From Escherichia phage PMBT57: a stretch of 64,000 nucleotides of DNA. Each line of letters opens with the position of its first letter. The first letter of the stretch is position 1. A program made the position numbers and the translations under genes. Shown here one piece after another: positions 26,918-39,100 of the stretch. The notes beneath the pieces were generated by a model, which had not been told where the DNA came from, searched no databases, and saw only the letters and a program-made list of their open reading frames with translations. Where the stretch lies: the sequence record MG770228.1, one strand, 5' to 3'.

Positions 26918-27020
26918 GCTAAATCCTTATTGAAAAAGCCGGGGATACCCGGCTCTGTTAGTCCTAATGAACAGAGAGTGTGTTTATACACCCGTCAAAT
27001 AGTACCGATATTTACTAGTA

Positions 27021-34880: not shown

Positions 34881-36515
34881 TCACACGATATATGAAGAGA
34901 GTGGGTTAACACTTCCAGTATCATCACCATCATCCCACAATGGGTCACCTGATGTATTAACTGGAACCATACCTGCTTGTGGTTTCCACGGGTTCAGGTA
35001 GCCAAGCATTGAAATGGTATCAATACAGTCATCCTTACCTTTAAGACCATTGATAGTGGCTAAACGAATTTGCCCCATAAAGAGTGTCATGATTGGGCTA
35101 TCTTTCATCTCAGCAGGAAAATACATCTTACCAGCTTTGAACCAGGGAACCACGAGGTTAAACCTTGATAGCTTACTGGTTACAGGATGAATACCCGGTT
35201 GGCCTCCACGACTGGATGCAAAGTTAAAGAACACATTACGGTTAAGCATTTCCTTCTGAAGAAGAGAAATAAAACCACCTTGCTGTCCGGTAGTTTCTAC
35301 ACCAACTTGTTGTGGTTGGTATTCCTGAACCAGACGGAATAAGTCATCAAAGTTCTTATCCATAGTTTGACGGCAAGCAATACCATCTACCCAGAACCAG
35401 TCACCGTTAGAACCATATGCCCATACTGATATTACAGAGTAATCAGATACCTGCTTCTCGCTGGTAGCAAAGTCAGTGGTGATATAGAAGTTATAACAAG
35501 AACGTAGACGTAATAGCTGCGTACGGGAATACCATTTAATCTCTGAATCTTGAATCAGACGTTCATCTTCAGAGCTGATACGTAACATCAATTCCTGATA
35601 AAAGGATGCCAGCTTACCTGTCTTCAATGCCATCTGGTATTGGTCATTGATGTAGTCATAGGAGAAACGGTCTTCCCAAGCACCTTGAAATTCTTCTCGC
35701 GTACATGGGAATTTCTCACATACAGGCCATACGTTGACATCCCAAGCACCAGATTCAACTGCTTCAATAAGAATGTCTTCCTTATTAAAGGGAGTACCAT
35801 TAAATATTACCTTGCGTCTTGTTGGGTCAAGAGCATGGTTCACGCCCTTATATACCGTGTCTTTAATGGCCTCCATTGATGTACGTGAGCGAGCATCATC
35901 ATCGCTAACTAAGTCATCCAGTACACAAAGAACGGGACGTTTACCAAAAATCTTAGTACCACGAAGACCTGTCTTAGCACCGAACATCTTCACACCAAGA
36001 CGGTGACCTTCAGCATTTACAAACTCAAGGTAGTTATCTGTGAAGGTAGCTTTAGGAATCCATTGTTGCAGGAATGGTGAATTGTTGTATCGAAACTCAA
36101 TGTTCTTACGGGCAGACTTAACACCGTTATCCATAGAGTCAGATACATAAATCATTCCTTCTACTTTACCCAAGCTAGGTAGATGCCCAAACACTGCTAA
36201 GAACAAAGTAAAGTATTCCATGAACAGAGTTGTCTTTGCTGCACCACGGAAACATAAGTTAGCAATGTACTGATTCCTACTGGTTATCTTATCCAGCATC
36301 TTTAAGTGAACAGGAGGGGTTTTGTTTGATTCCCCCTCCTTACCATTAACCAGCTTAATAAAGTTAGCAAAGGTCAGTGCAAACTCGGTTGGTATATACG
36401 TAGGGGTATTCAGAACGGAATAGTCCACTTGGTCTAGCCATTCATCCAACTCCTGTTTAATTAGTTCAGACATCAATAATATCCTCGTCTTCTCGAACCA
36501 GTGTGGAACCTGCAA
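34881..36515 (-). CDS. terminase large subunit
   Basis: 544 aa; Walker A-like RGAAKTT near N-terminus; position at end of structural block. Confidence 0.65.
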   Translation of the reverse strand: MQVPHWFEKTRILLMSELIKQELDEWLDQVDYSVLNTPTYIPTEFALTFANFIKLVNGKEGESNKTPPVHLKMLDKITSRNQYIANLCFRGAAKTTLFMEYFTLFLAVFGHLPSLGKVEGMIYVSDSMDNGVKSARKNIEFRYNNSPFLQQWIPKATFTDNYLEFVNAEGHRLGVKMFGAKTGLRGTKIFGKRPVLCVLDDLVSDDDARSRTSMEAIKDTVYKGVNHALDPTRRKVIFNGTPFNKEDILIEAVESGAWDVNVWPVCEKFPCTREEFQGAWEDRFSYDYINDQYQMALKTGKLASFYQELMLRISSEDERLIQDSEIKWYSRTQLLRLRSCYNFYITTDFATSEKQVSDYSVISVWAYGSNGDWFWVDGIACRQTMDKNFDDLFRLVQEYQPQQVGVETTGQQGGFISLLQKEMLNRNVFFNFASSRGGQPGIHPVTSKLSRFNLVVPWFKAGKMYFPAEMKDSPIMTLFMGQIRLATINGLKGKDDCIDTISMLGYLNPWKPQAGMVPVNTSGDPLWDDGDDTGSVNPLSSYIV

Positions 36516-37158
36516 TTACTTTAGTAGGTGTACCAGCTTCAATAGCTGCTTTCTGAGCTTCAGCCAACTGGGTTAGTGTGTTCTTGAGTTCAGTCAATCC
36601 AGAGTTTTCTCTCAAATCCAGATTGATATTAGTAACAGCATCCTTCGGTTTCTGGAGGTGAGTAAGGATAGAGTTGGCAGCATCACACTGTACCTTCTCA
36701 CTGGTAGCATTCTTCATGAGCCATGCCTGATGGTTCAATGCTTCCTGAAACAAATCCTGATTAACAATCCATACTGGAATCAGTGATTGTTCCATAATGA
36801 GGTTTACTAACTTACCTCTATGGTAAGCAGATACATAAGCAGAGATGTCCTTCTCACTGGTTCCCCTTGCTACTAATTCAGCTTGTCTGTTGGGGAATGT
36901 TTTGAAGTAAGCATCTTTGTTGCTATACCCCATGTGTTTGTAAGTAACATATTGAACAGCATTAAGATAATCCTGGGTCTTAAACTTCCCATCCTTCATC
37001 ACCCCAGCATAAGTCACAAAGTTATTTCTAATTTGCTCTGCTGCTGTCTGGTCTTGGGTCACATTGTTAATCATGTTTACCAGTTGGTCAGTAACACTGC
37101 TTTTAAACTGGGGAGGCAATGCAGAAACAATGTCTTTCTTCGTCAGTAGTGTGCTCAT
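36466..37158 (-). CDS. putative terminase small subunit / packaging protein
   Basis: First gene of the late operon, overlaps the terminase large-subunit start by 50 nt. Confidence 0.4.
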   Translation of the reverse strand: MSTLLTKKDIVSALPPQFKSSVTDQLVNMINNVTQDQTAAEQIRNNFVTYAGVMKDGKFKTQDYLNAVQYVTYKHMGYSNKDAYFKTFPNRQAELVARGTSEKDISAYVSAYHRGKLVNLIMEQSLIPVWIVNQDLFQEALNHQAWLMKNATSEKVQCDAANSILTHLQKPKDAVTNINLDLRENSGLTELKNTLTQLAEAQKAAIEAGTPTKVIAGSTLVREDEDIIDV

Positions 37159-37790: not shown

Positions 37791-37818
37791 GGGAGCCATT
37801 TGGCTCCCTTTTTCTTTT
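37791..37818 (+). terminator. intrinsic terminator-like hairpin
   Basis: 7-bp stem gggagcc/ggctccc, loop attt, then TTTTTCTTTT. Confidence 0.55.
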
Positions 37819-37837
37819 ATGAACCAAGGAGTTCTAT

Positions 37838-38203
37838 ATGAACATTCGTCCTAATGAAGTTTATGGTATCAACCTAGAATACACTACAAACAAACCTGCT
37901 CTATTTCACTGCGGTTCCACCAATCTATTCCATGCTATGTGTGGTAATACCAAACCTCTTTACTTACCCGAATCGGATGATACCCATGCCCTACTAGGTA
38001 ACTGGTTCTTAGAAGGTAAAGACATTAGTACCATTCTTCTCGAACCAAGGAAGAAAGTAGCAATACCTACTAATGCATGGAATAACGAAGTCATTTACTT
38101 CCTAGCACCAGAAGGCTTTGAACCAGTGATAGAACAGAATCACTTTAATCATGCAGTTACTTTCTACTTCAGAGAGACTTCAAAGTTATCTGCTTATAAA
38201 TAA
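37838..38203 (+). CDS. early hypothetical protein, 121 aa
   Basis: ORF track; RBS aaggag 7 nt upstream of ATG. Confidence 0.6.
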   Translation: MNIRPNEVYGINLEYTTNKPALFHCGSTNLFHAMCGNTKPLYLPESDDTHALLGNWFLEGKDISTILLEPRKKVAIPTNAWNNEVIYFLAPEGFEPVIEQNHFNHAVTFYFRETSKLSAYK

Positions 38204-38212
38204 GGAAAGCTA

Positions 38213-38340
38213 TGTGGTATATAACAGTTAAAGGTTTATCCGAACCAGTGATGATAGATAGCCTGGCATTCGTAGAAGTAGGTCATCCTATTCTTATAGA
38301 AGGTAAGTTGTATGAAGTTGTTAGTATTTATAAGAGATAA
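38213..38340 (+). CDS. small early ORF, 42 aa
   Basis: ATG with RBS aaggaa immediately after previous stop; below ORF-track size cutoff. Confidence 0.3.
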
Positions 38341-38506
38341 ATAGGAAGTCTATTAGATAGATACCTTATAATTTTTTCTTAGTGAAAATAGTCATAGTTA
38401 CTTATGAGTTCAGTATTTGGTGGGGCTACACCCCTTACACCATAAGCACCCCCCCCCTGTCTTTACTAGTGTAGCCTTAGCCTACCCCACCTTGTACACG
38501 TTACAC

Positions 38507-38519
38507 GTTGCTTCGCAAC
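38507..38519 (+). promoter_or_regulatory. 5-bp stem / 3-nt loop hairpin, candidate vRNAP-type promoter
   Basis: gttgc-ttc-gcaac; template strand gives loop GAA with central purine; about 50 nt upstream of ATG 38571. Confidence 0.35.
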
Positions 38520-38570
38520 TTATGGACATGTTGTCCGTATCTTATCAATCAACTATTGGAGACTAATACT

Positions 38571-38897
38571 ATGACTACTCAGGCTAACGTTCGTATGACT
38601 GTAGGAACTCTGTTGGGTACTGTTAACGAAGCAGCAACTACTGTAGCTGATACATTCGGTACTGCTACTAAAGCAGTAGGTATGCTTAATCGTTATGTAA
38701 CTAAACAAGCAGATAAACAAATCATTCGTGACAAATTAGAAATGCATGAGTTTACCAATAAACTTATTGAAGAAACTGCAATGCAAGAAGCTATTCGTCA
38801 GAAACAAATCTTAGACTTCTGCAAAGATGAACAAAACAAAGAATTGTTCTCTAATGCCTATGACCGTCTTAGCAAAATCTTAGCAGACTCTAAATAA
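38571..38897 (+). CDS. early hypothetical protein, 108 aa
   Basis: ATG with RBS ggagac; ORF track frame opens at 38508. Confidence 0.55.
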   Translation: MTTQANVRMTVGTLLGTVNEAATTVADTFGTATKAVGMLNRYVTKQADKQIIRDKLEMHEFTNKLIEETAMQEAIRQKQILDFCKDEQNKELFSNAYDRLSKILADSK

Positions 38898-38909
38898 CAA
38901 CAAACAAAT

Positions 38910-38933
38910 GGAGGCTCCTCGGAGTCTCCTTTT
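38910..38933 (+). terminator. intrinsic terminator
   Basis: Stem ggaggct/agtctcc (one G-U) followed by TTTTAC. Confidence 0.5.
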
Positions 38934-38973
38934 ACATAGAACCGATAGTTCAATAACTATCTACTTTAAAGAT

Positions 38974-38990
38974 AAGAAGCTCCGCTTCTT
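38974..38990 (+). promoter_or_regulatory. 7-bp stem / 3-nt loop hairpin, N4 vRNAP early-promoter-like
   Basis: aagaagc-tcc-gcttctt; template strand reads AAGAAGC-GGA-GCTTCTT, matching the N4 P2 promoter hairpin as I recall it. Confidence 0.5.
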
Positions 38991-39100
38991 TTGGATGAAG
39001 TAATGCATCCAATCCTGTATGAAATCTTAACCTTTTGTCTGGGATTACTTACCGACAAAGTAGTCTCAACTAATCAAAATCAACTATCTGGAGAGTACAA

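Follow-up and report, generated by a model that had tools for sequence, protein, structure and literature searches.

A conserved motif module at the left genome end of an N4-like phage: a putative packaging signal

The locus and its place in the genome

The stretch under study, positions 38415-38500 of the 64-kb window (the whole piece of DNA that was analysed), reads ...TATTTGGTGGGGCTACACCCCTTACACCATAAGCACCCCCCCCCTGTCTTTACTAGTGTAGCCTTAGCCTACCCCACCTTGTACACG. Its neighbours place it on the map of coliphage N4. A megablast search with positions 37800-39100 matched N4 and its close relatives at 98-99%, and the window represents a phage about 99% identical to N4, assembled in circularly permuted form. 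The first-pass annotation had located the stretch between the first early genes and a hairpin. The upstream genes are instead homologues of gp71 and gp72, which are the last genes of the N4 map, and gp1, the first early gene, lies downstream. The gene of the large terminase, gp68, is about 2 kb away. The features referred to below, given with their strand where one applies, are the following:

34881-36515, minus strand: large terminase gene gp68 (PHROG 38)
37838-38203: gp71 homologue
38212-38340: gp72 homologue
38393-38400, plus strand: upstream junction box U1, CATAGTTA, non-coding and outside the terminal repeat
38409-38416, plus strand: upstream junction box U2, TTCAGTAT, adjoining the cut from outside; family consensus TGYAGTGT
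38417/38418: putative mature left end, and left boundary of the direct terminal repeat at the concatemer junction, placed from EF056009 and the relatives
38418-38857, plus strand: direct terminal repeat, collapsed to one copy, with a predicted right boundary
38419-38425 and 38485-38491: outer inverted repeat, GGTGGGG and CCCCACC (repeat finder)
38424-38431 and 38469-38476: inner inverted repeat, GGCTACAC and GTGTAGCC (repeat finder)
38427-38431 and 38436-38440, plus strand: first direct TACAC pair, with a short C run between the copies
38449-38457, plus strand: C box, a C9 tract, followed in the N4 clade by TGT
38481-38491, plus strand: P box, CCTACCCCACC, which holds the right arm of the outer inverted repeat
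38495-38499 and 38502-38506, plus strand: second direct TACAC pair, directly 5' of the P1 hairpin
38507-38527, plus strand: early promoter P1 of the virion RNA polymerase, with the hairpin GTTGC-TTC-GCAAC at 38507-38519, then TTATGGAC
38571-38897, plus strand: gp1, the first early gene, whose 3' part reaches past the terminal repeat

The P1 assignment is based on Klebsiella phage KP8, where the homologous site is annotated as P1. The layout with hairpin P1 and gene 1 within about 150 nt downstream is identical in all relatives. The window has a second hairpin promoter at 38976-38988.

Window positions 38418-38571 are 100% identical to positions 1-154 of the N4 record EF056009. The match to this record is split at the locus: its first base corresponds to window position 38418 and its last bases (70153) to window position 38417. 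The match runs without interruption through the permuted records of AlfredRasser, Jura, AL25, SPSP, and the BEU phages. Judged by this correspondence, the flagged stretch would be the first ~85 bases of an N4-type left genome end, where the direct terminal repeat starts. Only one copy of the repeat is present within the 64-kb window, as a collapsed circular assembly would lead one to expect, and we take the record to be a permuted assembly with a collapsed repeat. The first-pass annotation did not register a physical genome end at 38417/38418.

According to Ohmori, Haynes & Rothman-Denes (1988; cited in PMC3896407, PMC3670811, and PMC5557969), N4 DNA carries direct terminal repeats of 390-440 bp and short 3' extensions; its left end is unique and precise, and its right ends are several. 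The measured ends of relatives fall within about 2 nt of the base homologous to window position 38418. The commonest read starts of IME11 are GTGGCTGGGGCTACACC, and its repeat is about 401 bp long (PMC3896407). KP8 has a repeat of 404 bp and its record opens with ATTGGTGGGGCTACA, the repeat of Mimir124 is annotated at 1-403, and the terminal-repeat feature of G7C starts at the homologous base. Once mapped onto the window, the boundary identified by PhageTerm in the UE phages (401 bp) is position 38418, and the ends of phiAxp-3, LUZ7, and LIT1 are known from direct end sequencing. The records of 3HA13, VEc25, and OLB145 start at the same base, but probably by the N4 convention, and were left out of the independent support. 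We thus assign the element to the N4 left-terminus class by sequence identity, and predict a physical end at this position in the phage's own virions because the ends of its relatives were measured at the homologous position.

The right boundary of the repeat is expected at 38807-38857 from the 390-440 bp of N4 and at ~38818-38821 from the 401-404 bp of the relatives; in relatives with both copies, the repeat is 404, 404, and 433 bp long. In KP8, IME11, Mimir124, and the Achromobacter phages, the boundary is at, or 14-20 nt past, the sequence TTCTGCAARGA, which corresponds to the FCKD codons of gp1 and lies at ~38817-38827 in the window, inside the range reported for N4.

The terminus itself is thus already known. 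What had been described as a structured intergenic region is relabelled here as the left genome end of N4, mapped in 1988, and our proposal concerns the putative function of its motifs. In permuted assemblies of N4-like phages the real ends are concealed, and in some records spurious ORFs have even been annotated over the ends. We considered a small protein-coding gene across the region (ORFs 38382-38474 and 38417-38566) and rejected it: the frame shifts with the length of the C tract, the ORF crosses the physical end, conservation takes the form of blocks with indels, and the annotations of the relatives disagree.

Conserved motifs and variable inverted repeats

We compared the terminus with its homologues in a 30-sequence alignment covering Enquatrovirus, Gamaleyavirus, Kaypoctavirus, Moovirus, and uncultured contigs. 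It contains invariant blocks amid DNA that is about 75% identical, in genomes that are only about 47% identical overall. In order, these blocks are GGGCTACA-CCC-TACAC, the C tract, CCTACCCCACCT, two TACAC, and the P1 hairpin followed by TATGGACATGTYGTCC. The TACAC repeats are invariant in 29 of 30 relatives and occur in two to four copies in other lineages. The P box is the same in all 30 aligned sequences, and CCCC is invariant across 19 lineages. In the window, four direct copies and one inverted copy of TACAC lie within 80 nt. This is its densest cluster in the window, and a chance origin is ruled out (Poisson P ~3e-7). The next densest cluster, at 26987, is ordinary-looking.

In relatives for which the right-end copy of the terminal repeat is available, conservation extends beyond the repeat. 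Box U1, about 45 nt upstream of the first TACAC, has the family consensus (G/C)ATAGCTA, of which T, A, and A are invariant or nearly so in an alignment of 19 diverse lineages. The sequence ..TGTAGTGT(AT) precedes the right-end copy of the repeat in KP8, the JW-like and Axp-like phages, and G7C. Across the 19 lineages there is therefore conserved non-coding sequence on both sides of the cut, as one would look for at a terminase site.

The C9 tract is the sole homopolymer of at least 8 nt in the 64 kb; the first-pass annotation had called a run of this length unusual in a compact phage genome. The next longest run of G or C has 5 nt, and since only ~0.04 C runs of at least 9 nt are expected in 64 kb, a chance origin is ruled out. 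Among the ~45 relatives compared, every one has a tract of at least six C, and wherever a left end has been mapped by experiment, 29-35 nt separate it from the start of the tract. Across the family, the C box has the form (TA)C6-13 then GGT, usually with C7, so that the C9 of the window can be read as the C7 element of the whole family, expanded and prone to slippage. The tract is C8 in BEU5; C9 in the window, N4, VEc25, and BEU13; C10 in Jura, AlfredRasser, AL25, 3HA13, and OLB145; C12 in SPSP; and C6 to C13 elsewhere in the family. The suggestion that it is a point of length variation is thereby borne out, with C8, C9, C10, and C12 found among isolates whose flanks are ~97-100% identical, a variation that sequencing error may cause in part. 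The presence of at least six C in every relative examined indicates that the tract is a real and selected feature, not an artefact. It is the most widely conserved element of the terminal module, one that keeps its position while its length varies.

Such variation among close relatives is also what a contingency switch would produce, but the tract was not found in a reading frame or in a promoter spacer that would switch a gene. The region has no sigma-70-like promoter and no intrinsic terminator, the sole terminator-like site being at 38910-38929, after gp1. Rfam covariance models gave no match at E <=1 on either strand of 38200-39100.

We then used the order of the motifs to search IMG/VR. 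A scan with an earlier 14-base pattern had returned mostly chance matches, and it was replaced by the composite pattern TACAC-N2-5-TACAC-N0-12-C7GG. The latter identified 28 loci, mostly from contigs of 70-78 kb. All the inspected loci show the same succession of elements: TACAC repeats, the C box in its family form, a variable spacer (often with an extra TACAC), a CTACCCC box, a hairpin with a 5 bp stem and a 3 nt loop, TTRTGG, a ribosome-binding site, and a gp1 homologue. More distant phages have recognisable versions of the module. In the Achromobacter phage phiAxp-3, four TACAC-type repeats are accompanied by a C7 (nt 34-40), by CCTACCCTACCCCCC, and by a hairpin promoter. In Pseudomonas phages, LUZ7 has C7 then GGTGG at nt 29-35, and LIT1 combines TTAT-C7-GGTACC (C7 at nt 30-36) with an exact copy of the N4 box, CCTACCCCACCTTG, at nt 70-83. 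As far as these matches go, the composite motif appears to be specific to the N4-like phage family.

The nested inverted repeats show a different pattern. The sequence and the repeat finder confirm that they are present, together with the C9 run, where the first-pass annotation had reported them. Perfect nested repeats of 7 and 8 nt within 85 nt gave 33 seed combinations in the window, where Markov simulations average 2.9 per 64 kb, yet the inverted repeats are only mildly unusual, and the chance reading is not rejected for them. Folded as single-stranded DNA, the two strands had z-scores of -0.54 and -0.08 relative to dinucleotide shuffles and were no more stable than these. In the outer repeat, the right arm (CCCCACC) falls inside the invariant P box, whereas the left arm takes the forms GGTGGGG, GGCTGGGG, ACAGGGG, and CTAGGG. 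The inner repeat has as its right arm GTGTAGCC, made up of the single inverted TACAC and neighbouring bases; Enquatrovirus and most of Gamaleyavirus have this arm, G7C and Moo19 carry GGGTGTA in its place, and the KP8-like phages lack it. The inner partner is absent from many other lineages too. We found no compensatory changes in the 30-sequence alignment, in which no pair had changed on both sides.

The P1 hairpin serves as a positive control for this last result. Its stems covary freely (GTTGC, CATGC, GACGC, GGTGC, GGCGC, GCGGC, GCGAC) around a constant 3 nt loop and TTRTGG, and a real structure therefore leaves covariation in this data set. Invariant blocks, together with helices of inverted repeats that show no compensatory change, suggest that conservation is of the sequence type and not of the structure type. 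When the terminal 16 nt were compared with the 80 nt that follow, their complementarity was greater than in shuffled sequence (P<0.05) for no more than 6 of the 19 lineages, and because of this we regard the inverted repeats as lineage-specific by-products of an inverted TACAC copy and of the C-rich and G-rich boxes. The comparison with relatives that the first-pass annotation had proposed thus separates its two observations, the C tract being kept in every genome and the inverted repeats not. Its idea of a functional structure formed by these repeats does not hold up against missing inner partners, uncompensated changes, and folding at the level of shuffles.

A putative signal for processing the concatemer junction

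We propose that the first ~90 bp of the genome, together with the boxes at 38393-38416, probably form a signal that acts in cis at the concatemer junction to direct DNA maturation and packaging. Concatemer processing would be positioned through recognition of the TACAC repeats, the C tract with its GGT, the CCTACCCCACC box, and the two outside boxes. The terminase (the large subunit gp68 and a partner) or a maturation complex would bind the repeated motifs and make the precise left-end cut at 38417/38418, at a fixed distance of about 30 bp from the C tract, while the right-end cuts, about 400 bp away, would be less precise. Among the explanations considered, a junction-processing signal gives the best fit because the conserved blocks flank a precise cut, a short motif is repeated, and the distance between the C tract and the end is fixed. 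Non-coding boxes beyond the repeat are also expected of such a site. That the packaging machinery reads the module, and that it does so in this manner, we infer from three sets of observations: the identity with N4, the ends of the relatives, and the pattern of conservation. An earlier suggestion that the region is regulatory or origin-like pointed to the right general area, in the sense of a cis-acting terminal element, but the inverted-repeat structure on which it drew is unsupported.

A general promoter-upstream element was considered and set aside, since the window has no other cluster of TACAC and C tract, not even upstream of the second hairpin promoter (38976-38988). In the literature searched, in which Ohmori et al. 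1988 is represented by the papers citing it, we found no description of the function of the terminal motifs and no link between them and the terminase; the function of the module is thus uncharacterised there. The module is at once the leading end at ejection, a sequence 50-90 bp upstream of P1, and part of an end that needs replication, and conservation alone cannot separate roles in packaging, ejection, transcription, and replication. The upstream boxes could also serve an unrelated function for the genes of the right end.

These multiple roles of the end make docking a serious rival to the packaging signal, even if we consider it unlikely. The module would then anchor the first DNA entering the cell, as a docking site of the leading end for ejection and early transcription. 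It would bind an ejected virion protein or a membrane complex, for which the non-catalytic domains of the giant virion RNA polymerase and gp51/gp52 are candidates; host gyrase would supercoil the closed segment of ~500 bp, and the P1 hairpin would be extruded. The left end does enter the cell first, and the need for gyrase on a linear genome implies, as a review notes (PMC4496689), an end that is topologically constrained when the P1 hairpin is extruded. The role of the C-terminal domain of the polymerase is open, and it may bind or unwind DNA according to the authors of a 2026 structural paper (PMC13434306). Moreover, the distance of the module from the end is fixed, and in most lineages P1 is abutted by the P box and a TACAC pair. 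Docking leaves unexplained, however, why conserved boxes lie across the cut, outside the repeat, and the promoter is only loosely coupled to the module in LIT1, whose first hairpin lies ~50-100 nt away from the C and P boxes. A fold-back mechanism has weaker support, and we find it improbable. In this telomere-like element, the 5' end would be resected and the 3'-ended bottom strand would fold through the inverted repeats, pairing the terminal CCCCACC with GGTGGGG and GTGTAGCC with GGCTACAC, to prime DNA synthesis or protect the end. The outer repeat indeed takes in nt 2-8 of the genome, which pair with nt 68-74, other terminal complements exist in Gamaleyavirus (GTGGCT/AGCCAC) and in one Achromobacter phage (GTGTACA/TGTACAC), and Bal31 resistance has been described in the literature for the ends of JA1 and VchO139-I, which are Vibrio N4-like phages. 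But many lineages lack terminal complementarity, the excess over shuffles being confined to the six mentioned above; neither covariation nor stability above chance was found, since the loops of 37 and 59 nt fold like shuffles; and pairing does not explain the elements that are truly invariant, the direct TACAC repeats and the C tract.

Two explanations remain. The strongest excess of C over G in the window is found here (GC skew -0.37) and C runs are conserved at three positions, which would suit a non-B DNA conformation of the C-rich top and G-rich bottom strands—i-motif, G-quadruplex, or A-like rigid tract—acting under supercoiling or as a pause for the packaging motor. Given that the G runs (G4, G9, and G4+G2) are separated by long loops of 14 and 27 nt, we give this very little credence, and it is not independent of the packaging and docking readings. 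Least credible of all is that the C9 is a sequencing error at an assembly junction and the repeats a coincidence. The length of the homopolymer does differ among near-identical records, for which sequencing error may partly account, and the inverted repeats are thermodynamically unremarkable, so for these repeats the chance reading is largely right. For the C tract it is effectively refuted: a run of at least six C recurs in this position across four genera of Enquatrovirinae, the Achromobacter and Pseudomonas N4-like phages, and uncultured contigs, and the relatives were sequenced by different methods.

Whether the module acts as the packaging signal we favour or at another step, its motifs may be of practical use. 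The TACAC repeats, the C tract at a fixed distance, and the CCTACCCC box could predict the genome ends of N4-like phages from sequence alone, and the map of conserved motifs could guide the dissection of cutting, packaging, and first DNA ejection in these phages.

Comparison with known terminal systems

The closest system is N4 itself. Its left end (EF056009) has the same order relative to gp72, P1, and gp1, and its DNA is no different; in the window, the terminus appears as an internal junction because the assembly is permuted and the repeat collapsed. The module directly adjoins P1, but the flagged inverted repeats do not resemble the N4 promoters P1-P3. Hairpin promoters of the virion RNA polymerase have a GC-rich stem of 5-7 bp, a loop of 3 nt, and TTRTGG, whereas the loops of the flagged repeats have 37 and 59 nt; only the neighbouring element at 38507-38527 fits the promoter form.

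The cos site of lambda and the pac site of P1 have copies of short motifs beside or flanking a defined cleavage position, close to the terminase genes. The N4-type terminus, as a putative recognition site, would be similar in having repeated short motifs around a defined cut near a terminase gene. It differs from both in its product, which consists of terminal repeats with 3' extensions instead of cohesive ends or headful permutation.

The T7/T3-type podoviruses (Autographiviridae) likewise have a short direct terminal repeat, fixed ends, and a left end that is ejected first. The terminal repeat of T7 includes short direct repeats, of CCTAAAG, where the N4-like unit is TACAC. A C run lies 26-32 nt from the left end in both groups of this type, C5 in T7 and C7 in T3-like contigs. 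More precisely, T7 has C5-ATA-G5-TACC at nt 26-41 and the hairpin GTCAACC-TTC-GGTTGAC at nt 65-81. The T3-like contigs have GTA-C7-ATAG, with the C7 at nt 26-32, then CCCTACCCC at ~nt 62-72 and a GC-rich hairpin, GGTTAACC-TTC-GGTTAACC, with a TTC loop, at ~65-96 nt. Variable poly-C stretches have been described in T3-like terminal repeats (PMC5923468). The N4-like phages differ in that their right end is heterogeneous and their hairpin serves the virion RNA polymerase as a promoter. Global alignments of T3/T7 with N4-like ends were not significant (z at most ~2), and the likeness consists of positioned motifs picked post hoc. We thus treat the resemblance with T3/T7 as a lead only.

With this in mind, one may speculate, at rather long odds, that a C7-GGT about 30 nt from the leading end, a CCTACCCC box about 70 nt in, and a GC-rich hairpin constitute an undescribed cis-signal common to the N4-like family (phages of Escherichia, Klebsiella, Shigella, Achromobacter, and Pseudomonas) and possibly to the T3/T7-type podoviruses. 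The GC-rich hairpins in question have a pyrimidine-rich loop of 3 nt, most often TCC or TTC. If such a signal exists, it might be a pause-and-cut site where packaging stops, a set distance away from the portal, or a docking site for the first ejected DNA, and the hairpin promoter P1 of N4 might have derived from an older hairpin of the terminal repeat.

A terminal module shared by N4-like phages

Sequence comparison showed that the terminal module is common to N4-like phages infecting Escherichia, Klebsiella, Shigella, Achromobacter, and Pseudomonas, and it is also found in many uncultured contigs of 70-78 kb. Its parts are TACAC repeats, a C7 run 29-35 nt from the end with GGT after it, a CCTACCCC box, and the hairpin promoter. 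We found no account of such a module in the searchable literature.

Terminal module and ORFs annotated over the terminus (L-numbers are the sequence loci of compared phages and contigs)
38418-38527 of the window: terminal module
L147 1-110, L148 1-110, L193 1-150, L165 1-110, and L171-L191: terminal module in other loci
L127 642-827 (AlfredRasser bas69_0081), L138 614-724, L140 612-710, and L124 89-199: terminus-spanning ORFs

Several public records carry small hypothetical ORFs called over the genome terminus and the C tract. These annotations disagree with one another, and their reading frame is set by the length of the homopolymer. They are probably spurious.

Flanks of the terminal repeat and a candidate reader

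Two conserved non-coding boxes adjoin the terminal repeat on its outer side, in AT-rich surroundings (24% GC over 38300-38399). Only concatemers, and virion DNA at its right end, have these boxes joined to the repeat. At the other side, the right boundary of the repeat lies in several genera at TTCTGCAARGA, a conserved DNA motif within gp1 that encodes FCKD, or 14-20 nt past it. Because of this recurrent position, the FCKD coding stretch of gp1 may possibly have a dual role and also serve as the right-end cutting signal.

Elements flanking the repeat
38393-38400: (G/C)ATAGCTA box, conserved, non-coding
38409-38416: TGYAGTGT box, conserved, non-coding
~38817-38827: right-boundary motif, TTCTGCAAAGA
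L126 ~390-404, L142 ~1015-1035, L124 ~385-403, L165, and L167: right-boundary sites in relatives
36466-37158, minus strand: gp69 homologue, 229 aa, PHROG 2109

The large terminase gene begins inside the gene of the gp69 homologue, a protein with no Pfam match and no function assigned to its PHROG. Its gene occupies the usual location of the gene for the small terminase subunit, which makes the gp69 homologue a candidate for the protein reading the terminal motifs.

Sequences around the early promoters

A further small inverted repeat, GGACA-TGT-TGTCC (38524-38536), lies directly downstream of the hairpin of P1, the early promoter of the virion RNA polymerase, at or close to the point where the gp1 transcript begins. 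In the alignment of 30 relatives the greater part of this block (GGACATGT-GTCC) is invariant; a stem of 5 perfect base pairs was found in the T variants alone, which make up roughly a third of the sequences. The second virion-polymerase promoter is not part of the terminal repeat, and no TACAC/C-tract module accompanies it.

Elements downstream of gp1
38910-38929: terminator-like hairpin, after gp1
38976-38996: second virion-polymerase promoter, GAAGC-TCC-GCTTC then TTTTGGAT, downstream of the terminator-like hairpin

One uncultured Gamaleyavirus-like lineage (L163 394-700 and L183 1935-2250) has an insertion of about 150 nt between the terminal module and gp1, which contains extra GC-rich palindromes and shifts the usual hairpin promoter downstream.

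Comparison with T7 and T3 ends

We compared these ends with those of T7 (L192 1-110) and of T3-like contigs (L194 1304-1420 and L195 8-120). The overall alignment between T7/T3 and N4-like ends was not significant. In terminal repeats of the T7/T3 type, a C run occupies nt 26-32 counted from the left end, followed in the T3-like contigs by CCCTACCCC at about nt 62-72. T7 and T3-like ends also have, at about nt 65-96, a GC-rich hairpin whose loop is TTC. This arrangement resembles the N4-like layout, and the hairpin resembles the P1 hairpin of N4.
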